DNA of 64,000 bases, taken from assembly GCA_016839585.1 (NCBI GenBank), contig JAEOTZ010000042.1, positions 24,110 to 88,109 of the forward strand. The letters run 5' to 3'. Under the pieces are notes generated by a model. That model worked only from the letters and a program-made list of their open reading frames with translations, was not told the origin of the DNA and made no database searches. The translations under genes were made by a program, and so were the position numbers. Source of the stretch: Promethearchaeota archaeon. GTDB lineage: Archaea; Asgardarchaeota; Lokiarchaeia; Sigyniarchaeales; SOKP01. Every line of letters begins with the position of its first letter. The stretch's first letter is position 1. This document shows positions 24,477 through 62,960 of this stretch, piece by piece.

Positions 24477-25721
24477 ATGCCGAAAGGACAAATTGAAAAA
24501 ATTGAATTAATAAGTAAGTTCTTAGATAAAGCCAAAGTGATAAACTTTGATAAATTAAATACAGTTGATGATATAATCAAATTACCAATTTCAACTTTTA
24601 ATTTCTTGAGTGATGCTGATGTAGAATTAATTTATGATTTATTCGAAATTAGTAGTATAGGACAATTTTCATCTTTGGATTATTTACAACCATTCAAAAT
24701 TTTATATAAAGACAAAAAAACTAAAAGAAAAATTGAGCATATATTACAAACAGATTTAGAAATCGAAGATAAGGTAAAAAAAGCAGTTGCTATAAGCAAA
24801 ATTATATACCAAATAAAAGAAGAATCAATCTCCTTTTTAACAAAAGAGCAAAAAGTTATTGTTGTTGGTTTAAGTAATGCGGGAAAAACAACAATATTGA
24901 AAAAATTTGGTGGACAAATTGGTATAAAAGATCTAGCTAAATTAAGTCCAACAAAAGGAGTGGAACGTCATGAAATAATAACTTCAGATTTAGTTTTAAT
25001 AGTTTGGGATTTTGGTGGTCAGCAAGAATACAGAAAAATGTATCTTCATGAACCTGATAAATATTTTTTAAAAGTTGATTTAATAATGTATGTCATAGAC
25101 CTTCAAGATCCAGAAAAATATGAAGAAAGTATAAAATATTTTAAAGAATTAATTGATATTATCGAAAAACTTGAAGAAAATCCTTACATCTTAATTTTTA
25201 TACATAAATTTGATCCCGATATAAAAGATAATCCGGAAATATTGCTTAATATTGAAGTTGTAAAGGATTTAATTAAAAATGTTTTCAGGGATAAAAAGAA
25301 ATATGATTATGACATATATTTAAGTTCTATATATTCAATATTAGCAAAAGAACCAAAATTTTCAAGATATCTTAAAGATACTATGGTAAAAACTGCAACA
25401 TTAACAGATCATAAATTAGAAGGAATGGCATCAATTTTAGAGTCATCCTTAAATGGAATTATTAGATTATCAGAAACAGTAATGACACAATTTAATGAAA
25501 TTGATAATCGAATAAGAATACTAGAAGGTGAAGAGCCAATCTCAAATAGGGCACCTTCTTCAATACCCTCTCCAGAATATTCTTCCATACCTCCATTTGC
25601 TTCACATTCAAGTACCAATATTGGAAAAAAAGTCATACCTAATAGAATTAAAAATGTAAGAGTTGCTGTTCTTGATGAACTAAAAGAATTACTTGAAAAA
25701 AGAAATAAAAAATTACTATAA
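24477..25721 (+). CDS. Rag/Arf-like small GTPase with N-terminal helical extension, coiled coil, Pro/Ser-rich linker and C-terminal amphipathic helix
   Basis: G1 GLSNAGKTT, G2 PTKG, G3 WDFGGQ, G4 HKFD, G5 SSIY. Confidence 0.88.
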   Translation: MPKGQIEKIELISKFLDKAKVINFDKLNTVDDIIKLPISTFNFLSDADVELIYDLFEISSIGQFSSLDYLQPFKILYKDKKTKRKIEHILQTDLEIEDKVKKAVAISKIIYQIKEESISFLTKEQKVIVVGLSNAGKTTILKKFGGQIGIKDLAKLSPTKGVERHEIITSDLVLIVWDFGGQQEYRKMYLHEPDKYFLKVDLIMYVIDLQDPEKYEESIKYFKELIDIIEKLEENPYILIFIHKFDPDIKDNPEILLNIEVVKDLIKNVFRDKKKYDYDIYLSSIYSILAKEPKFSRYLKDTMVKTATLTDHKLEGMASILESSLNGIIRLSETVMTQFNEIDNRIRILEGEEPISNRAPSSIPSPEYSSIPPFASHSSTNIGKKVIPNRIKNVRVAVLDELKELLEKRNKKLL

Positions 25722-51466: not shown

Positions 51467-54283
51467 TCAATTTTTTGTTCGTGGAATAGAAAAATAAAAT
51501 GTACTTCCCTTATTTCTTCCCTCTGATTCAACCCAAATTTTTCCGCCATGTAATTCTATAATTTTTTTTGATATATATAATCCAAGGCCAGTCCCTTGTA
51601 TCTCCACATCCCATCCTTGTCCGTATCTTTCGATTTTACCAAATTGTTTAAACAATTGACTTTTTTCTTCTTCAGTAAGTCCAATTCCACTATCTTTAAC
51701 AGAAATTATAAAAAAATTATCTTCTATTTCAGATTTAATAGTTATATTTCCACTCGGGGGTGTATATTTTATTGCGTTTATTAACAAATTTGAAATTACT
51801 TCATGAATCCTTTCTTTATCAAATTCTGCTTTTAGCTTGTCATGCAAAATAAATGATAAAGCTTGATTTCTTAATTTGGCTAAACCTTGTAGCTCTTTTA
51901 CTGAAAATTTAATTAAGAAATTCAAATCTTCTTCAGTAATATTTAATTGTAATTGACCTTGGTCTAGCTTTGAGCTTTGTAAAAGTAGATTAATAATTTT
52001 TTCTAATCGTCTACTTCCGTCTTTGATTTCTTCTAAAACTTTAATAACTTCAGTATCAAATTTAGATTTATGGAGTGTTAATAAAAGTTCAGTAAATCCT
52101 TTAATTGAAATTAATGGGGTTTTCAATTCATGCGAGGTTCTTGATAATAACTCTGTTTTTAATTTATTTATTTCATTTAACATGATATTTTGTGCCTCTA
52201 AGTCTTGTTGTACTTGCCATCGTTTCTGTTCAATTTCAATAGCATCGGAGATTAAAAATAACACTAATTTATCTTGATTAGTTATTATTGGATTATTTTT
52301 ATAGAATATGCAAACCCCACTATTAAATTGATTTTGAGAAGGAATTAATTTTCCATAACATCCTATTAAATTAGTATTTTCAATAAATCGATCAATTTTA
52401 GCATATTTAGTTTCATTTATATTAAAAAATGTTTGAGGAAAATCATGACTTTCATGAAATAATTCACTCACAAAAAGTTTGTCAAAAAAATCATCAGGAT
52501 CGTAATTAAACACTCTTTTATCTGAAGTAATTATCTGATACTGTTCTTTTTCATTATAAATACTTTTGTGTATATATAAGATAAGATCCCCGTTTAATAA
52601 TTTATTACAAGTTTTTAATAATAATTGGATATTCTTTTGGATCTTTGTTGTAAAACTTAAGAAATTAATATTTAATTCATAAATTAATTCTTCATACATC
52701 TTCTTTTCAGTAACATCTTCCACCCATAATCTAAAACTAATTAATTCCCCTTTTTCGTTATAATGATTCACTTTTTTTCCAGAAAGCCATTTTAATTTTC
52801 CTTCTTTATGAATTATCCTAAATTCCAATTCTCTATCTTCAGTTGACTTGAAAAATTTGTTAATATCATCAGGATGGATGATATTAACCATCATTTCTTC
52901 ATTTTTCAATTCATCATGCTCATAACCAAATATATTCAATAATCTTGGATTAATATAGGAAATATCTTTATTTACTAAATTAACTTCCATTACTCCTACT
53001 GAGGATGTATATAATAAATCTCTATATTTTTCCTCTGATTCTCTTAATTTTTCCTCTGCTTCTTTTTTTTTAGTAATATCCTGAACAATAGCTTGGAAAA
53101 AGGTTTTATCTCCAAAATCTAATAAAGTTATTTGTGTATTAACCCAATTTGAACTGCCATCTTTTTTAAAAACTTGAAATTCCGTAGGTTCTACTTTCTC
53201 TCCTTTATATATTCGCCCTAATTTTTTATTTAGAATTGTGTATATTTCTGATGGATGAAGAGGTAAATGTATATAGGATTTTCCTATAAATTCTTCCTTA
53301 CTATATCCAAATAATTTTTCTGTAGTAGAATTATAATCAATGATTTCACCCTTTAGATCAAAAAGAATAATAGAATAGGGAGAAGATTCGATTAAATGAC
53401 GATATTTTTCTTCAGATTCTTTTAGTTTTTGCTCTGAAAGTTGCCTTTCAGTTATATCTTCAAGAGTGACTAAAATTCCAGCAACTTTATCTTCTGAATC
53501 GTAGAGGGGTATCCTATTTGTATCAACCCAAATCAATTCTCCATTATCTAATACCCAAGACTCAACTTTATGAAATTCAGGTTCTCGTGTCTCCATAACA
53601 ATAGTTTCATGCTTCTTAAGTTGATTTACTTTATCTTCATTAGAGAAAATGTCAATATCAGTTTTACCTATTATATCCTCGGCTTGTTCAATATTTACAA
53701 GGGTAGCAAAATTATGATTACAACCTAAATACAGAGAATTAATGTCTTTCCAAAAAATATACTGAGGTATATTTTCCATAACCATCTGTAGCATTTCATA
53801 AGAGCTCCGTAATGCTTCTTCATATTTTTTCGGATTGATTAATTTCCAAAAACGAATTTCTGGAATCGTTGTAGTCAGTTTTTGGAATCTTTCCTCGTTC
53901 TCATGTAATTTTTCTTCCAAATCTTTAATCTTAGAAATATTTTTTAAAACAACTAATAATTTTTTTTGATGATTTTCATCTTTAATTTTTTTTACTTTTA
54001 TTTCAAACCATATATGTTTGTTGTTTTTATGCTTAACCCTAATTTCTTGTGAGTGGTCTTCAGATTCAGTTCCTCTCTTTAAAACCCTAATTACTTTCTT
54101 TATATCATCAGGATGTAAAATTCTCAAAATTGATATGCCGATTAAATCTTTATTTGAATATCCCAGCATATTTTGATAATTATGCTCATTAATGAAATCA
54201 AATTTGAATTCATTATCTATTTCCACAACACCTATTAAATCATTGACGTATTCAAGATAGGTCTGCGGCTTATAATCGCTCAA
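51467..54283 (-). CDS. Cytoplasmic multi-PAS (four) + GAF-like sensor histidine kinase
   Basis: HPDD/PAC repeats (DITE), H-box SHELKTP, NLLINAIKY, DSGIG, GTGLGL. Confidence 0.92.
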   Translation of the reverse strand: MSDYKPQTYLEYVNDLIGVVEIDNEFKFDFINEHNYQNMLGYSNKDLIGISILRILHPDDIKKVIRVLKRGTESEDHSQEIRVKHKNNKHIWFEIKVKKIKDENHQKKLLVVLKNISKIKDLEEKLHENEERFQKLTTTIPEIRFWKLINPKKYEEALRSSYEMLQMVMENIPQYIFWKDINSLYLGCNHNFATLVNIEQAEDIIGKTDIDIFSNEDKVNQLKKHETIVMETREPEFHKVESWVLDNGELIWVDTNRIPLYDSEDKVAGILVTLEDITERQLSEQKLKESEEKYRHLIESSPYSIILFDLKGEIIDYNSTTEKLFGYSKEEFIGKSYIHLPLHPSEIYTILNKKLGRIYKGEKVEPTEFQVFKKDGSSNWVNTQITLLDFGDKTFFQAIVQDITKKKEAEEKLRESEEKYRDLLYTSSVGVMEVNLVNKDISYINPRLLNIFGYEHDELKNEEMMVNIIHPDDINKFFKSTEDRELEFRIIHKEGKLKWLSGKKVNHYNEKGELISFRLWVEDVTEKKMYEELIYELNINFLSFTTKIQKNIQLLLKTCNKLLNGDLILYIHKSIYNEKEQYQIITSDKRVFNYDPDDFFDKLFVSELFHESHDFPQTFFNINETKYAKIDRFIENTNLIGCYGKLIPSQNQFNSGVCIFYKNNPIITNQDKLVLFLISDAIEIEQKRWQVQQDLEAQNIMLNEINKLKTELLSRTSHELKTPLISIKGFTELLLTLHKSKFDTEVIKVLEEIKDGSRRLEKIINLLLQSSKLDQGQLQLNITEEDLNFLIKFSVKELQGLAKLRNQALSFILHDKLKAEFDKERIHEVISNLLINAIKYTPPSGNITIKSEIEDNFFIISVKDSGIGLTEEEKSQLFKQFGKIERYGQGWDVEIQGTGLGLYISKKIIELHGGKIWVESEGRNKGSTFYFSIPRTKN

Positions 54284-56206: not shown

Positions 56207-57052
56207 ATGGGGATGGAAGATTTTTTACAATGTTTAAGTTGCGGTAAAAAATTAGGTCCTAAATCAAAAGAAAGAGCTAGTCAATGCACAGAATGCATAT
56301 TAAAATTGGATTTTAAGACAAAAGATTTGGATCATATTTATATAGATAGAAATCTTCAGAAAATATTAGATTTTTTTATATCTGATGTAAATGCTGCTTT
56401 TAATAAAGATCCTGCAGCTCATACTTTAATCGAAGTCTTAACTAGTTATCCAGGAATAAAAGCACTATTATTATATAGGATTGCTCATTTCTTTTGGAAA
56501 TTAGGAATGCCATATATTCCAAGATATATATCTGATATTGCAAGAGAATTAACAACTATCGAAATACATCCTGGTGCTGAAATTGGAAGTGATTTCTTTA
56601 TCGATCATGGCGCTGGTGTCGTTATTGGAGAAACTGCTGAAATAGGAAAAAATGTTACTATATATGCTGGAGTGGTTTTAGGAGGAACAAGATTGGAACA
56701 AAAAAAGAGGCACCCAACCTTAGGAAACAATGTTGTTGTAGGAACTGGTGCTAAAATATTAGGACCTATTATCATTGGTGATAATGTAAGAGTTGGAGCT
56801 AATTCAGTCGTAGTAAATGATGTCCCTTCAAATTCTGTTGTAGTTGGAGTTCCAGGCAAAATTATTTCAAGAAAGGGTGAAAAAATTGAGAGAATTGATC
56901 TAAGACATGGAGACCTACCAGATCCTATAGCAATCGCAGTATCGAGCTTAGAAAAACGAATAAGAGAATTAGAGAAAAGTCTTCCAAACAATCGGCAAAA
57001 AATAAGTGAAGATATAGAAATTTTTTATGGAGAAAATGGTGGAGGTATATGA
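56207..57052 (+). CDS. cysE: Serine O-acetyltransferase with N-terminal C2C2 extension
   Basis: DPAA, YPG, EIHPGA.IG..FFIDHG, KRHPTLG, VGVPG; ATGA overlap with cysK. Confidence 0.93.
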   Translation: MGMEDFLQCLSCGKKLGPKSKERASQCTECILKLDFKTKDLDHIYIDRNLQKILDFFISDVNAAFNKDPAAHTLIEVLTSYPGIKALLLYRIAHFFWKLGMPYIPRYISDIARELTTIEIHPGAEIGSDFFIDHGAGVVIGETAEIGKNVTIYAGVVLGGTRLEQKKRHPTLGNNVVVGTGAKILGPIIIGDNVRVGANSVVVNDVPSNSVVVGVPGKIISRKGEKIERIDLRHGDLPDPIAIAVSSLEKRIRELEKSLPNNRQKISEDIEIFYGENGGGI

Positions 57053-57993
57053 AAAAAATGGTAAATTATTATAATAATATTATTGAGACGATTGGAAAAA
57101 CTCCCTTAGTAAAATTGAATAGAATCGTTAAGGATATTGATCCAAAACCTAATATATTCGCAAAATTAGAATATTTTAATCCAGGTGGTAGCGTTAAAGA
57201 TAGGATTGGAATGGCTATGATTGAAAAAGCTGAAGAAGAAGGGATAATAAGTAAAGATATCACAATAGTTGAACCTACATCTGGAAATACAGGAATAGGA
57301 TTAGCGTTGGTATGTGCTGCTAAAGGCTATAAATTAATTCTCACCATGCCAGATAATGTTTCAATTGAAAGGACACAAATTATAAAAGCATATGGAGCAG
57401 AAGTACTTCTGACTCCGAAAGAAAATGGAATGAAAGGAGCAATTGATAAAGCAGAGGAAATAGCGAAAGAGAAAGTAAGAATTTTTATTCCTCAACAATT
57501 TAAGAATTTAGCAAATCCAGAGATTCATCGAAGAACGACTGCTAAAGAGATATTTAATGATTTAGCGGGTCAAGTTGATGGATTTGTTGCTGGTGTTGGA
57601 ACAGGGGGGACTATAACTGGAGTAGGTGAAATTTTAAAAGACAGAGTAGGGGCTAGATTAAAGGTATATGCTGTTGAACCTAAAGACTCTCCGGTTTTGT
57701 CTGGTGGAAGTCCTGGGCCTCATAAGATACAGGGAATTGGAGCAGGGTTTATTCCAGAAGTTCTTAATACGAAAATATATGATAAAATTATTAAAGTTGC
57801 GTATGAGGATGCTATTATTACTGCTCGAAAATTAGCACAATTAGAAGGTATTTTTGCTGGAATTAGTTCAGGAGCAATAGCATGGGCAGCTATTAATGTA
57901 GCATCAAAAGATTTTGAAGATGGTAAAAATCTTGTATTTATTATTTGTGATACAGGGGAAAGATATTTATCAACTGAATTATATCAATTCTAA
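57049..57993 (+). CDS. cysK: Cysteine synthase A
   Basis: NPGGSVKDR, EPTSGNTG, GVGTGGT, HKIQGIGAGF, DTGERYLST. Confidence 0.95.
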   Translation: MKKMVNYYNNIIETIGKTPLVKLNRIVKDIDPKPNIFAKLEYFNPGGSVKDRIGMAMIEKAEEEGIISKDITIVEPTSGNTGIGLALVCAAKGYKLILTMPDNVSIERTQIIKAYGAEVLLTPKENGMKGAIDKAEEIAKEKVRIFIPQQFKNLANPEIHRRTTAKEIFNDLAGQVDGFVAGVGTGGTITGVGEILKDRVGARLKVYAVEPKDSPVLSGGSPGPHKIQGIGAGFIPEVLNTKIYDKIIKVAYEDAIITARKLAQLEGIFAGISSGAIAWAAINVASKDFEDGKNLVFIICDTGERYLSTELYQF

Positions 57994-57998
57994 TTTTG

Positions 57999-58907
57999 TT
58001 ATGGATTTGAAATTTGTGGAGTAGTTAAAATCTCAAGAATCTTATCCCAATATAGTTCTATATTCCAATTTATATTACTCTTTAAATTTTCAGAAATTTC
58101 TTTAAATATCTCTTTAATTCTTAAGGATTCAAAATAATTTATCTCTGGAGCAATTAAGGATAGCATATACTGTCTTTCGCCATACCTCTCACCTTCTTTT
58201 TTAAAAGAATCAAAAAAGACAAACCCTTTATTTTTAATATTTTCAATATTAAGCAAAATTCCTTGTTCTTTAGTTATATTTTCATGTCCATAAATCGAAG
58301 TGGCAGCATGAAATAATTGATTTCCTAAAGTTTTAATTGGTATCGAAAAATCTTTTTCTCTTGGATAAAAATCCTTTAGTACAGGCCCAATTTTATCGTC
58401 CCACTCGACTAATAATAAACAGACTAATTTTTTTTGTTCTTCAGAAATAGATGGTTTGAAATCTATTGATAAAGAATCAAGCAACTCTTTAATTTTTTTA
58501 TTGATGTTCTTTATGTCTTTATTTCTTAAAATTTTTCCAGAAATAGTAGCTAGTAAATCATCTTCATCAAAAGGTTTTGTAATATAATCATCTACACCCA
58601 ACATCTTACCTAATCTAATATCTTCTGGAGTAGATTTTGCTGTTAAAAAAAGAAATGGTATGTGATTCCATTTTAAATTATGGGATACATGCTCGAAAAA
58701 ATCATATCCGTCTATTCCTGGCATCATTATATCACTAATAATTAACTCAGGAAGTATATCTAAATTTGAGAGAATTTGAATTGCTTGTTTTCCACTAATT
58801 GCTGTAATTACTCTATAATCTTTAGATTCTAATAATAATTTTATATTGTATAATATATCTTGGTTATCATCAACTAATAAAATAAGGGGTTTCACAGATG
58901 AGCTCAA
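57999..58907 (-). CDS. Response-regulator receiver fused to a uDENN/longin-like domain
   Basis: REC: LVDD, D59 in SDIMMP, FLTAK, K111 in TKPF. C-term: LLLVEWDDKIGPVLKDFYP...FVFFDSFKKEGERYGERQYMLSLI. Confidence 0.8.
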   Translation of the reverse strand: MSSSVKPLILLVDDNQDILYNIKLLLESKDYRVITAISGKQAIQILSNLDILPELIISDIMMPGIDGYDFFEHVSHNLKWNHIPFLFLTAKSTPEDIRLGKMLGVDDYITKPFDEDDLLATISGKILRNKDIKNINKKIKELLDSLSIDFKPSISEEQKKLVCLLLVEWDDKIGPVLKDFYPREKDFSIPIKTLGNQLFHAATSIYGHENITKEQGILLNIENIKNKGFVFFDSFKKEGERYGERQYMLSLIAPEINYFESLRIKEIFKEISENLKSNINWNIELYWDKILEILTTPQISNP

Positions 58908-58972
58908 TTGAATACCCTTAAAAAATTATCTTTTACTGTTGATTAATATCAATTGAGTTTATATAAAAATTT

Positions 58973-61300
58973 TTATTTTTCAGAATGATTTAAACGTGGA
59001 AGAAATATGTAAAAAGTAGATCCTTCATTTAATTTACTCTCAACAAATACTTTACCTATATGAAGTTGAATTAATTCCTCTGCTATAGATAATCCTAAAC
59101 CTGATCCCGGGATTTCACTAACATTTTTTGACCTATAAAATCTTTCAAATATGTGAGGTAACTCATCTTCAGAAATTCCTATACCGGTATCTTTAAATTG
59201 GAAGAGAACTCCATTATTTCCATTTATATTATATTCTCCTTTATAATCATCAAATGCATTAATCTCAATTGTAGAATTCTCTTTTGAATACTTTATAGCA
59301 TTATCAATAAAAATACGAAATATTTGATCAATTCGTTTCGGATCTCCTTTTAACATAAGATTTTTGTGAATATCAATCTTAAAGTCTAAATTTTTCTCTT
59401 TACCAATCGGTTCCATAAGTGTTAATATATTATTAATTATTTCTAATGGATAATATTCAATCCAATCGATATCTACTCTCTTCTCATCGATTCTCGATAT
59501 CATTAAAATATTTTCCGCTAATTTATGAAGTAATTTAACATTTCTATCAATCCCATCCATAAGTTTTACTTCTACTTCAGGTTGAAGATCCTTCTTATAA
59601 TTTTTTAAGTAATCCATTGACATTAATAAAACGGTAATTGGGGTCCTTAATTCATGAGAAACTGTTGATATTAATCGTTTTAATCTATCTTCAGCTTTCT
59701 TTTTCTCGGTAATATCTCGAGCGATTGTGGATGCTCCAATAATTTTATTATTTCTATCTTTTATCGGTGAAATTGTAAGAGAGACATTAACTTTTGATCC
59801 ATCTTTCCTTATTCTTTCAGTTTCAAAACCTTCAAGTTTTTCTCCACTTTTAATTCTTGTTAATATTTCAAGGATCTCACTTTTTTGGTTAGGAGGTGAA
59901 AAAAGCTCGATTGATTTTCCCAATACTTCTTCAGTAGAATAATAATAAATTTTCTCAGCAGCTTTATTCCAGCTGGTAATTATTCCATCTAATGTTTTAC
60001 CTATTATTGCATCCTCGGATGATTCTACAATAGACGCTAATCTCGTTTTTAATTCTGCTGCTTTCTTTTGCTCTGTTATATCTCGAAATATTGATTGAAA
60101 ATAATTTTTTCCAGATAAAGATATTAATTTAGTTCTTATATAAATATCCTTAATTTCTCCGCTTTTAGTGCGAAATTTCGACTCGAAATCATTACTTCCA
60201 TCTCTTATTACCTTTTCAGTATGGCGTCTTGTCTCAGAAGGGGTTTCCATAACATCATAATCATTTACTTGTAATTTTTCAAATTCTTCATGTGTATAAC
60301 CTAATATTTTACATGCTGCATCATTAAATTCGACTGCTCTTAAAGTTTCAAGATCTATGACTAGAATACCATCAGGAGATTGTTCAAAAATGGTACGATA
60401 TCTTAATTCTGCCTCTTTAAGCAGTAAATTAGCTTTTTCAAGGTCACTCGCTTTAGAAATTAAATTTTTTTCACTTAATTTTAACTTTCTAAATAAAAGA
60501 TTAATAGGATTTTCTAAACCAATATTTATAATAGCTTTATACAAAAAGAAGAAAGAGATGATTTTAAAAATATGTCCAATTAAATTTGGAATTCCATAAG
60601 CAGTTATATAAAGTGTAAAAGATAACTCGGATATTATAGTTGCTATAATTGAGTATAATAAAGTTAAGTAAATTTTTCTTTCAAATAAAACTCGATGTCT
60701 ATAAATCATGAAAATTGTTATAAAAAGTAAAAAATCAATAATATATTCACTAATTATTTTAAAAGGCGTTAAACCAGTTCCTTCAATAAAACAGTCAGGA
60801 AAAATTCTTGAAAAAATTAATACTAATAAGATAAATGTAATTATAATGTAAAATATGATCAGATAGTTGATTTTAATTTTTTTATTTATTATTATAGATG
60901 CAAAAAGGAAAGATCCTGCCTGCATATAACGTGCTGCTATCCAGAGTTGTGCAGCTAAGTTTGTATCATAATCAGGAAATATTTCCATTCCAGGATATGC
61001 TAAAGAATGAACTAAATCTAAAAAACCAACATATAAGAAAGATACACCAATTACCAGAAAAAATGAATTATCAATACGTTTTCGAGAATTCCAACAAATT
61101 ATAAAAATCCCTCCTCCAATAACAATACTGAAGAATTCAGCAATTGTATGGAAAAGGAGATAATTATAAAATATAGTCAAGTAGGTTAAAAATAATATTA
61201 TCAGAAAAACATAAATTTCTACACGATAATTCTTTTTTTCAGAATTTTTTTGAGTTTTTGTAGTATCTGAGTAGAGATTATTTATTTGTTCATCAACCAT
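58973..61300 (-). CDS. MASE3 membrane sensor + two PAS + histidine kinase
   Basis: YLLFHTIAEFFSI, DLVHSLAYPGM, QLWIAAR, GLTPFKIISEY, GHIFK; SSEDAII/SWNKAAE; SHELRTP, DNAIKY, GSGLGL. Confidence 0.92.
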   Translation of the reverse strand: MVDEQINNLYSDTTKTQKNSEKKNYRVEIYVFLIILFLTYLTIFYNYLLFHTIAEFFSIVIGGGIFIICWNSRKRIDNSFFLVIGVSFLYVGFLDLVHSLAYPGMEIFPDYDTNLAAQLWIAARYMQAGSFLFASIIINKKIKINYLIIFYIIITFILLVLIFSRIFPDCFIEGTGLTPFKIISEYIIDFLLFITIFMIYRHRVLFERKIYLTLLYSIIATIISELSFTLYITAYGIPNLIGHIFKIISFFFLYKAIINIGLENPINLLFRKLKLSEKNLISKASDLEKANLLLKEAELRYRTIFEQSPDGILVIDLETLRAVEFNDAACKILGYTHEEFEKLQVNDYDVMETPSETRRHTEKVIRDGSNDFESKFRTKSGEIKDIYIRTKLISLSGKNYFQSIFRDITEQKKAAELKTRLASIVESSEDAIIGKTLDGIITSWNKAAEKIYYYSTEEVLGKSIELFSPPNQKSEILEILTRIKSGEKLEGFETERIRKDGSKVNVSLTISPIKDRNNKIIGASTIARDITEKKKAEDRLKRLISTVSHELRTPITVLLMSMDYLKNYKKDLQPEVEVKLMDGIDRNVKLLHKLAENILMISRIDEKRVDIDWIEYYPLEIINNILTLMEPIGKEKNLDFKIDIHKNLMLKGDPKRIDQIFRIFIDNAIKYSKENSTIEINAFDDYKGEYNINGNNGVLFQFKDTGIGISEDELPHIFERFYRSKNVSEIPGSGLGLSIAEELIQLHIGKVFVESKLNEGSTFYIFLPRLNHSEK

Positions 61301-61337
61301 TGATTTACTTTAATTCTCTTAAATTTTTAAATTATTT

Positions 61338-61892
61338 TTAAAACAAGCGCGATTTTTCAAAAATAGTATATATCGAAGTTTTATGGATTGAGTAATTAAA
61401 GTTTGGAGGTATTTTTTCATTTATTAAATTAATTATATCTTTTACAGTATTCTCATTAACCTTTTTATTATATTGTTCTAAATCGGGGTCAAATTTGTGT
61501 AAAAATATTGAAAAATCTACGCTTCTGTCATATTCTTTTAAATGTTTAATTATTTCTTCCAAGTAATTCAATGCTAAATTATAGCGTTCAATATCTTGAA
61601 TATCAATTACATAAATTATTTTACTTGTCCCAATAATATATTGATTAAAGTTTTCTAAATACTCCTCTCGGAAAGCTTCTTGACCTCCAAAATCCCAAAT
61701 ACTGTAGTTTAAGTCTGAAATCTTAAAAGCTACAACATCCGCTCCCTTTGTTGGTCTAATAGAATAAAAAGATAAGAGGTTTTTAATACCTTTTAAACAT
61801 AACAATATCGAAGTTTTTCCACTATTATCTAATCCCATAATGAGTATTTTTTTAGCATTTTTTCCTTCAAAATCTTTATCCTTTTTAGCCAT
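61338..61892 (-). CDS. Stand-alone Rag/Arf-like small GTPase
   Basis: LIMGLDNSGKTS, PTKG, WDFGGQ, HKFD, TSIY; start likely ATG 61892. Confidence 0.9.
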   Translation of the reverse strand: MAKKDKDFEGKNAKKILIMGLDNSGKTSILLCLKGIKNLLSFYSIRPTKGADVVAFKISDLNYSIWDFGGQEAFREEYLENFNQYIIGTSKIIYVIDIQDIERYNLALNYLEEIIKHLKEYDRSVDFSIFLHKFDPDLEQYNKKVNENTVKDIINLINEKIPPNFNYSIHKTSIYTIFEKSRLF

Positions 61893-61944
61893 GATTGATT
61901 TTGATAACAATATTTAATTTAAATTTCATACTATTTTCATATTA

Positions 61945-62280
61945 TCAAGATAATGTATCTAATACATCTAAATCTCTTAATTCTTTCAGTTTTTCTTTAT
62001 TAATTTCATTCGCAAAATCACTAATTGAGGAAATTAATGGAAAAATATCTAGATTTTTAATTTTATAATGATTTAAATTACTCTTTTTTTCAGATATGAT
62101 GAGATTGTAATTTAGTAATAGTTTAAGATGTTGAGAAATAGTAGATTGCGATTTATTTAATGCTTTTTGTATTTTTAGGGATGTTTTACCACCACTTCTT
62201 AATAACTCTAAAATTTCTAAACGTGTTGGATCTGCTAAAATTTTTAAAAAGTCGATTAAATATTTTTTCAATTCACTCAT
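61945..62280 (-). CDS. ArsR/SmtB family transcriptional regulator
   Basis: LADPTRLEILELL, SQSTISQHLKLL. Confidence 0.9.
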   Translation of the reverse strand: MSELKKYLIDFLKILADPTRLEILELLRSGGKTSLKIQKALNKSQSTISQHLKLLLNYNLIISEKKSNLNHYKIKNLDIFPLISSISDFANEINKEKLKELRDLDVLDTLS

Positions 62281-62447: not shown

Positions 62448-62960
62448 ATGAGTAGTAAAATTTTCAAAATAGATGAAGTTGATCGAAATATAATTCAATT
62501 AGTCCAAAATGAACCCACACTTACTCATACTGAAATTGCGAAAAAAGTTAACAGAAGCCAGCCAACTGTAGGCATGAGAATAAAGAAACTAGAATCTTCG
62601 GGAGTATTAAAATTTCAAGCAGGTATAAATATAAAAACAATGGATTTGTTTCTTGGGCGAGTTGAGATTCAAACATTACAACCAAGAAAAATATTAGATC
62701 TGGTAAAAAAATGCCCATACATGCTAAATGCCTTCAGATTAAGTGGAACATCAAATATTAGTATTTTACTCGTCGGACCGAAATTTGAATATCTTGATAA
62801 TATTGTAAATCATCACTTTAGAAAAAATCCTAATATTACAAATGTTTATTTAGATATCATAACTGATGTTGAAAATGATTTTGTATTGCCTTTTGATTTT
62901 GATTATGAAAAATGTGGAGCACAGCCAGATGGAGAATGTTGTGGTAAGTGTACACGATAA
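62448..62960 (+). CDS. Lrp/AsnC family regulator with Cys-rich C-terminus
   Basis: IDEVDRNII, EIAKKV..SQPTVGMRIKKLE, RAM-like domain, C-terminal CGAQPDGECCGKC. Confidence 0.88.
   Translation: MSSKIFKIDEVDRNIIQLVQNEPTLTHTEIAKKVNRSQPTVGMRIKKLESSGVLKFQAGINIKTMDLFLGRVEIQTLQPRKILDLVKKCPYMLNAFRLSGTSNISILLVGPKFEYLDNIVNHHFRKNPNITNVYLDIITDVENDFVLPFDFDYEKCGAQPDGECCGKCTR

Follow-up and report, generated by a model that had tools for sequence, protein, structure and literature searches.

A conserved Asgard gene cassette places a receiver-longin response regulator beside a Rag-like small GTPase

Results

A two-component system and a Rag-like GTPase share one cassette

The DNA analyzed here, referred to as the window, is a stretch of 64,000 nucleotides from a Promethearchaeota archaeon (assembly GCA_016839585.1, contig JAEOTZ010000042.1, positions 24,110 to 88,109 of the forward strand). 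It carries a cassette of four co-oriented open reading frames (ORFs) on the minus strand, placed head to tail in the order ArsR-family regulator, Rag-like small GTPase, membrane histidine kinase and response regulator, the last of which joins a receiver to a longin output domain (Table 1). We confirm that this feature is real and well conserved, and that its response regulator belongs to a protein class already in the literature; the gene context in which it lies here appears undescribed. We consider there to be about an even chance that it is a two-component system whose output regulates a small GTPase rather than transcription, with a kinase-controlled GTPase-activating protein (GAP) working on the GTPase encoded beside it. 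An earlier note on the raw sequence had read the cassette in this way, and that reading is supported as a whole: every part of it that could be tested in silico held, with action on the GTPase cycle as the inferred step.

The genes are separated by gaps of 34, 37 and 65 nucleotides, which agrees with the gaps of about 35-65 bp that the earlier note had reported for four co-oriented genes. Spacing and conserved order suggest that they are co-transcribed. The ORF rule places a TTG start on both the response regulator (58905-58907) and the GTPase (61908-61910). For the regulator this start is backed by its homologues (equal length, MSLSVKPLI). Homologue starts favor codon 7 for the GTPase, so that its start is probably the ATG at 61892, giving 184 amino acids and an ArsR-GTPase gap of 52 nucleotides.

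Gene order ties the GTPase to the kinase and the regulator

The strongest argument for a functional connection comes from the recurrence of the cassette. One genome per prokaryote species was scanned, which yielded 77 loci that were annotated with the window proteins, and 62 of these were informative, having enough upstream sequence to judge. The complete order of ArsR, GTPase, MASE3 kinase and receiver-longin regulator is kept in 51 of the 62, with three more lacking only ArsR, two having the GTPase divergent from the kinase and two showing other arrangements. Overall, the GTPase adjoins the kinase and the regulator in 56 informative species loci, and ArsR lies upstream of the GTPase in 51 loci. 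A tally of recurrence by gene gave 56 loci for the GTPase, 50 for ArsR and 51 for the divergent Lrp/AsnC-type gene beyond it. The flanks are less conserved, with the gene upstream of Lrp/AsnC found in one locus and the downstream genes in 4 to 26. The source genome has 22 genes scoring against Gtr1_RagA in 3.45 Mb, and by a rough estimate a GTPase would fall within two genes by chance in a few percent of cases. Judged by gene order, the recurrent GTPase linkage exceeds chance. One of the 77 loci (L058, contig DATKTW010000054.1) is labelled 'Candidatus Nanopelagicaceae bacterium' and holds a complete Asgard cassette with a split kinase ORF; this contig is probably mis-binned.

Conservation of the operon in Asgard genomes had been proposed as a check on the earlier reading, and the linkage also recurs, rearranged, in distant families. 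There, receiver-longin genes again lie beside GTPase genes, in other orders and with GTPase architectures of 172 to 462 amino acids. Gtr1_RagA is the best Pfam match for 7 of the 10 GTPases scanned from these other families, the rest being Arf- or Ras-type.

Four of the 62 informative loci have the kinase and regulator with no such GTPase upstream, which weighs against a dedicated longin-GTPase pair, and some of the conserved order may stem from descent and not from selection, a cysE-cysK pair downstream of the regulator being kept in 26 loci as well. The same longin is fused elsewhere to GAF and to DUF1638, and GTPase genes of MK-D1 generally do not lie in operons with longin genes (Tran et al. 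2024). These observations would fit a longin with an unrelated target, either another protein or a membrane site, and a GTPase that is only co-regulated or syntenic by descent. We regard this as improbable, however, because linkage to a Rag-type GTPase survives the reshuffling of gene order in distant families and because the GTPase and regulator genes tend to be present or absent together.

The latter point comes from the distribution of the two families over 400 Asgard species genomes. The longin family occurs in 161 of them, including 120 of the 134 genomes of the window's own family and all 22 in one family of another class, and in none from many families. The short GTPase family (E at most 1e-50) occurs in 116, all within the window's class. 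Of the genomes in the window's family, 103 carry both genes and 11 carry neither, while the regulator occurs alone in 17 and the GTPase alone in 3. The joint absences are spread over at least six genera, and those in one genus include four genomes that are 90-100% complete. As related genomes are not independent, we take this co-occurrence as supporting evidence and not as a statistic.

Fusions provide a further view of what the longin works with. Members of the family are found joined to a GTPase of Ras type (P0146), to a complete kinase-receiver unit (P0180, P0184), and to GAF and DUF1638 (fusion proteins P0268 and P0129/P0119). This variety suggests that the output module can be used under different inputs and works with GTPases. 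An arrangement that we consider distinctly unlikely would have the GTPase acting upstream of, or on, the phosphorelay or ArsR, with the longin serving only as a docking or dimerization module. The linkage always takes in the kinase and usually ArsR, beyond the regulator alone, and the cassette has no obvious downstream effector of the GTPase, both of which speak for this arrangement. The fusion of Ras-type GTPase and longin, together with the conservation of the longin motifs, instead points to contact between longin and GTPase as the conserved interaction.

The output domain is predicted to be a longin

Residues 140-302 of the response regulator have no significant match in Pfam. A search with them recovered about 133 proteins of about 300 amino acids, nearly all with the receiver plus output-domain layout, and every source name given for the 120 homologues listed belongs to Asgard. 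In an exhaustive search of 1.8 billion representative proteins the output domain was found in only 163 clusters. We modelled the domain of about 150 amino acids alone, using 34 homologues, with AlphaFold2 (AF2). The model (predicted local distance difference test, pLDDT, 88; predicted template modelling score, pTM, 0.83) has the order bb-a-bbb-a-a (b1-b2-a1-b3-b4-b5-a2-a3), which is exactly that of a longin.

Foldseek with the model of the whole response regulator returned receiver domains only. With the output domain, its top matches in the PDB were chains of KICSTOR-GATOR1 entries (9v0j_A, 9o5a_H and 9o5d_D; E 3e-5 to 6e-5). These chains have about 362-370 modelled residues, a length that would suit NPRL2. 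Next came chains of the SEA complex, the longin of a Lokiarchaeal Roadblock-Longin protein, FLCN-FNIP2 entries, DENND10 and Lst4, with a probability of 1.0 for chains of the GATOR1 and FLCN-FNIP2 entries. VIA, which is independent of Foldseek, gave Z scores of 12.6 for the Loki longin 8yqg, 11.5 for the Lst4 longin, 10.9 for a chain of the FLCN-FNIP2 entry 6nzd, 10.6 for C9orf72-SMCR8 and 10.2 for the SEA complex, followed by the longins of Mon1-Ccz1, DENND1 and TRAPP at 7 to 9.5. Neighbors in the ESM Atlas included Asgard clusters with Pfam Folliculin or NPR2 in 19-23% of their members, as well as eukaryotic SMCR8, NPRL2 and FLCN clusters; overall, Folliculin, NPR2 or SMCR8_C was present in 19-100%. 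Agreement among Foldseek, VIA and the ESM Atlas indicates that the fold assignment made from the raw sequence, a longin/uDENN-like domain, was right, and the Foldseek comparison that the earlier note had called for returned GATOR1, SEA, Loki longin, FLCN-FNIP2 and DENND matches. As modelled, the output domain is a longin of the FLCN/NPRL2/SMCR8/C9orf72 type. A roadblock fold like that of MglB was rejected: roadblock proteins, MglB included, reach Z of only about 7 against 10-12.6 for these longins, and the helices follow the longin order.

The longin carries the WD and GP motifs of GAP longins

Family alignments show W169, D171, G174, P175, R241 and a few core residues to be invariant, and across 101 diverse members the W is kept in 97, the G in 96 and the P in 93. 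In the domain model, G174-P175 open strand 2 and R241 lies between the strands at model positions 87-97 and 105-114. The family profile matches the longin of human C9orf72 over the whole domain at a marginal E of 0.025, aligning WDDKLGP with WDNILGP and placing the GP motif on G38-P39 of C9orf72. Around R241 the loop consensus is D-x-x-V-R-G-G-x-R-x-F-M, which may resemble the loops of FLCN and SMCR8. The catalytic arginine fingers of the eukaryotic proteins are R164 of FLCN, R78 of NPRL2 and R147 of SMCR8. A single chain of the regulator unites the WD motif of C9orf72 with a candidate for the arginine of SMCR8, FLCN and NPRL2, which would be consistent with a homodimer as the forerunner of the eukaryotic heterodimers.

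The WD and GP motifs coincide with those described for GAP longins, and R241 is a candidate for their arginine (Traffic 2025, PMC12290439). The GP motif is placed there where the b1-b2 loop closes or b2 begins, the position that it has in our model, and next to the catalytic arginine. It is present in FLCN, NPRL2, SMCR8 and C9orf72 and absent from the non-GAP longins of adaptins, TRAPP and DENND; the conserved loop arginine is likewise found in GAP longins and not in non-GAP longins. The same work regards a GP motif together with an arginine finger as the hallmark of GAP longins, finds W33-D34 of C9orf72 to be essential, and reports the GP motif and arginine in a class of Asgard longins (15 Asgard longins) for which GAP activity is proposed.

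The receiver-longin gene has been duplicated elsewhere. In a family of another Asgard class, two tandem paralogues lie between two kinases (L091:1168-3042 and L092:7566-9437), and in L091 four GTPase-like genes come after them. The WD motif, the GP motif and the loop arginine are kept in each of the two paralogues, and the pair could form a heterodimer.

Longins need not be GAPs. Mon1-Ccz1, TRAPP, DENN and Ragulator provide precedents for exchange factors, scaffolds or effectors, and it is possible, if rather unlikely, that the longin of the cassette binds the co-encoded GTPase in the role of guanine nucleotide exchange factor (GEF), scaffold or effector that reads its GTP-bound state. The linkage evidence (adjacency in 56 of 62 loci, the reshuffled families and the Ras-GTPase fusion) applies here in the same way, VIA finds Mon1-Ccz1, DENND1 and TRAPP longins as well, and PMC13408092 describes RomRX as an effector that binds MglA-GTP and not as a GEF. 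What favors a GAP over such a binder is the pair of GP motif and loop arginine, present in GAP longins and absent from the others (PMC12290439), along with the structural ranking, in which the best matches include GAP-type longins and the GEF-type longins score lower.

The GTPase is Rag-like in its G domain

The GTPase has its best Pfam match to Gtr1_RagA (8.9e-24, 84.6 bits), followed by Arf (1.7e-21, 76.9 bits). Its motifs are GLDNSGKTS (G1), T54, WDFGGQ with Q77, HKFD and KTSIY; all of the Rag-type motifs that the earlier note had quoted are thus in the sequence. The G1-G5 motifs, T54 and Q77 are invariant across 35 orthologues from the operons. Among solved structures it is nearest to 8yl2_A (2e-24) and to LokiRagM, an Asgard Rag-like protein (8zla/9m28; 7e-21), and a literature search found no relevant paper for PDB entries 8YL2, 8ZLA or 9M28. 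Chains of RagC and RagD align over residues 13-185, including G4 and G5, and Arf chains only to about residue 140.

A G domain closest to the Gtr1/RagA profile and an HKxD G4 box are as expected of the Rag/Gtr family. However, the protein ends about 10 residues past G5 (all 35 aligned operon orthologues have 172-189 amino acids), and it lacks the C-terminal roadblock domain through which Rag/Gtr proteins dimerize. Its likeness to Rag is thus confined to the G domain, and it is not a full Rag/Gtr member. The invariant switch-II residue Q77 and the lack of a built-in arginine are what a GTPase relying on an arginine in trans would show. A further one of the 22 Gtr1_RagA-scoring genes of the genome lies in the window, a 414-amino-acid ORF at 24477-25721 (+) with its match at 24852-25337.

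The kinase and receiver have complete catalytic sets

The kinase matches Pfam MASE3 (6.5e-83), PAS twice, HisKA (4e-10) and HATPase_c (8.5e-25), and the NCBIfam model MASE3_PAS_HK (2e-129). Its hydrophobic segments were located. The H-box, which the earlier note had called intact, has His549 in SHELRTP and is accompanied by the N (NAIKYS), G1 (DTGIG) and G2 (GSGLG) boxes. The receiver phospho-site is likewise as that note described it (D59, K111), with the acidic pair D13 and D14 and with T89 completing the set; D14, D59 and K111 are conserved at 90% or more in the family alignment. By motif content, the catalytic residue sets of kinase and receiver are complete, and together the proteins have what defines a HisKA-type two-component system. 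The AF2 model of the full-length response regulator (pLDDT 83.8) has a helix over residues 115-145 connecting the receiver to the longin.

Neighboring genes

The first gene of the cassette encodes an ArsR protein that scores 66 bits against the NCBIfam model HTH_metalloreg, for which the cut-off is 55. The gene beyond it has further Pfam matches to HTH_AsnC-type (6e-11) and, weakly, to AsnC_trans_reg (2.6e-4), and its homologue is present in 51 of the 77 loci, divergent from ArsR every time. Lrp/AsnC proteins are typically amino-acid sensors, and the presence of this gene beside a Rag-like module is a suggestive hint. The tail of the protein has the pattern C-x8-CC-x2-C, and 36 of 76 strong Lrp/AsnC homologues from the loci have at least 4 Cys in their final 25 residues.

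On the other side, genes like cysE (serine acetyltransferase) and cysK (cysteine synthase), at 56207-57993 (+), converge on the response-regulator gene, the cysK-like gene ending 5 nucleotides from it. The convergent pair lies 5-51 nucleotides downstream of the regulator in 26 other loci, which may reflect synteny by descent or may hint at a connection with sulfur amino acids. Another large histidine kinase with multiple PAS domains (938 amino acids, 51467-54283, minus strand) lies 3.7 kb downstream of the cassette, and kinases of about 950 amino acids occur at a comparable distance in many related loci.

Table 1. Positions in the window of the cassette genes, their domains and key residues, and the divergent neighbor (aa, amino acids)
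Feature	Coordinates	Strand	Evidence
ArsR/SmtB-family winged-helix regulator, 111 aa, first cassette gene	61945..62280	-	Pfam HTH_5 5e-12
Rag/Arf-like small GTPase, G-domain-only, 190 aa from TTG	61338..61910	-	Pfam Gtr1_RagA and Arf
Membrane sensor histidine kinase, 775 aa, MASE3-PAS-PAS-HisKA-HATPase_c	58973..61300	-	Pfam, NCBIfam
MASE3 of the kinase	60506-61171	-	Pfam
H-box His549 of the kinase (SHELRTP), codon	59654-59656	-	
HATPase_c of the kinase	58994-59347	-	Pfam
Response regulator, 302 aa, receiver, long linker helix and longin output	57999..58907	-	Pfam, AF2
Receiver (REC), residues 9-122	58542..58883	-	Pfam Response_reg 1.6e-24
Phospho-acceptor D59 of the receiver, codon	58731-58733	-	
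Predicted longin domain, residues 163-295, FLCN/NPRL2/SMCR8/C9orf72 type	58023..58421	-	AF2, Foldseek, VIA, ESM Atlas
WDDKIGP, WD and GP motifs at the beta1-beta2 turn	58383..58403	-	Family alignments
R241, beta4-beta5 loop arginine, candidate arginine finger	58185..58187	-	Invariant in family alignments A1, A2, A5
Divergent Lrp/AsnC-type regulator, 170 aa, Cys-rich C-terminal tail	62448..62960	+	Pfam HTH_24 2e-14

Discussion

We hypothesize that an extracellular, membrane or PAS-sensed signal would set the activity of the kinase, which would in turn phosphorylate D59. Phosphorylation would alter dimerization of the regulator or expose or release the longin by way of the long linker helix. The longin, probably as a homodimer, would then dock on the GTP-bound GTPase and supply R241 in trans, stimulating GTP hydrolysis, so that the signal would set the GTP/GDP state. 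ArsR and the divergent Lrp/AsnC protein would probably provide transcriptional control of the cassette or an output from it. The phosphotransfer, the binding, the direction of regulation and the GAP chemistry are what we infer from the parts, as shown by sequence and predicted fold, and from their conserved linkage.

In addition to the loci without the GTPase and the inherited share of the synteny, several observations weigh against a GAP. The response regulator has no match to Pfam Folliculin (PF11704), NPR2 (PF06218) or the C9orf72-like family at E up to 1, and Folliculin finds weak matches in just 2 of the 101 family members. Folliculin was also unmatched in the source genome as a whole, which is uninformative as control genomes were likewise unmatched. 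The sequence match to C9orf72 does not survive broadening of the profile: the 101-sequence profile A3 found nothing among PDB sequences, nor did the single members P0249 and P0129, and sequence searches from the longin family did not reach FLCN, NPRL2 or SMCR8. R241 is kept in only 74 of the 101 diverse members, and its candidacy as an arginine finger comes from its loop position and conservation rather than from a residue-level superposition on FLCN, NPRL2 or SMCR8. Two parts of the eukaryotic GAP complexes are also absent from the regulator: the DENN part at the C terminus and a second longin subunit that differs from the first. Longin domains are more often GEFs or scaffolds, and we know of no Asgard longin that has been shown to have GAP activity.

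We also speculate, with considerable doubt, that the receiver-longin protein is a homodimeric GAP for the Rag-like GTPase beside it, joining the WD-GP pocket and the arginine finger in one chain. It would then represent, in a living organism, the single gene from which the heterodimeric GAPs for Rag and Arf in eukaryotes descend, with the kinase in place of nutrient sensors and Lrp/AsnC and ArsR in place of TOR as the output.

Asgard genomes encode small GTPases by the dozen, along with many longin and roadblock proteins, almost none of which can be paired. The cassette offers one fixed candidate pair of regulator and GTPase together with its input kinase, which makes the question of partners testable. 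It raises the questions of whether Rag-GAP chemistry is older than eukaryotes and what controlled it before TOR. Apart from the membrane domain of the kinase, all of the parts are small and probably soluble, so these questions can be taken directly to the bench. That partners are hard to assign is also noted by Tran et al. 2024, who found that the lack of operons hampers the matching of Asgard GTPases to GAPs or GEFs, and PMC12290439 does not decide between Arf-related and Rag/Gtr GTPases as partners of the GP-motif longins.

The earlier note knew of no description of such a system. This does not stand for the fusion of longin and two-component domains, which had been published by Liu et al. 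(bioRxiv 10.1101/2020.10.19.343400), and it appears to stand for the fixed operon that includes a Rag-like GTPase. In the accessible parts of Liu et al., Tran et al. 2024, an Arf-family preprint, PMC12290439, PMC5847659 and two papers from 2026 we found neither the fixed cassette nor the partner GTPase, journal coverage being incomplete. The literature on MASE3 yielded no paper on Asgard, and that on Rag-like GTPases added nothing on the cassette. Both the domain fusion and the general idea are thus in the literature, and the fixed GTPase gene context appears undescribed.

Comparison with known systems

The closest precedent is that of Liu et al., whose Fig. 5c shows many fusions of NPRL2-like longins to two-component domains in Asgard. 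The regulator described here belongs with these proteins, combining, in a single Asgard polypeptide, a two-component domain with an NPRL2-like longin. Liu et al. suggest that growth control in Asgard is still centered on two-component systems and place most of the fusion genes outside conserved neighborhoods. In contrast, the longin of our cassette is part of a fixed set of ArsR, Rag-like GTPase, MASE3 kinase and receiver-longin regulator, and the portion of the preprint searched describes neither such a set nor a partner GTPase.

The Asgard GP-motif longins of PMC12290439 have the same pair of motifs and a similar structural resemblance to FLCN and SMCR8; the accessible text of that paper does not mention receiver fusions or gene context, which set the present protein apart.

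In eukaryotes, longin GAPs act as complexes, with FLCN-FNIP serving RagC/D, NPRL2-NPRL3 of GATOR1 serving RagA/B and C9orf72-SMCR8 serving Arf. The archaeal protein resembles them in its predicted longin fold, the GP motif at the start of beta2, the C9orf72-type WD and a conserved loop arginine, and its predicted client is a GTPase of Rag/Arf type with a catalytic glutamine. Unlike them, it has a receiver as its input, lacks a DENN C-terminal part and a second longin subunit, and carries the WD and the arginine together on one chain, and the predicted client lacks the Rag roadblock domain.

Two further systems place receivers near proteins of this kind. In Myxococcus xanthus, MglA, MglB and RomR-RomX, with Frz, form a prokaryotic small-GTPase switch under a GAP of the roadblock superfamily, on which a receiver protein, RomR, and a phosphorelay act. 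MglB, however, is a roadblock and not a longin and has no receiver fusion, the output of RomR is not a longin, and the genes are not arranged as in the Asgard cassette. Finally, the thaumarchaeal REC-NitrOD3 proteins (Galperin et al. 2018, PMC5847659) likewise join an archaeal receiver to an output of the roadblock/LC7 kind that does not bind DNA; they differ in output domain and in phylum, and the accessible text mentions no GTPase with them.

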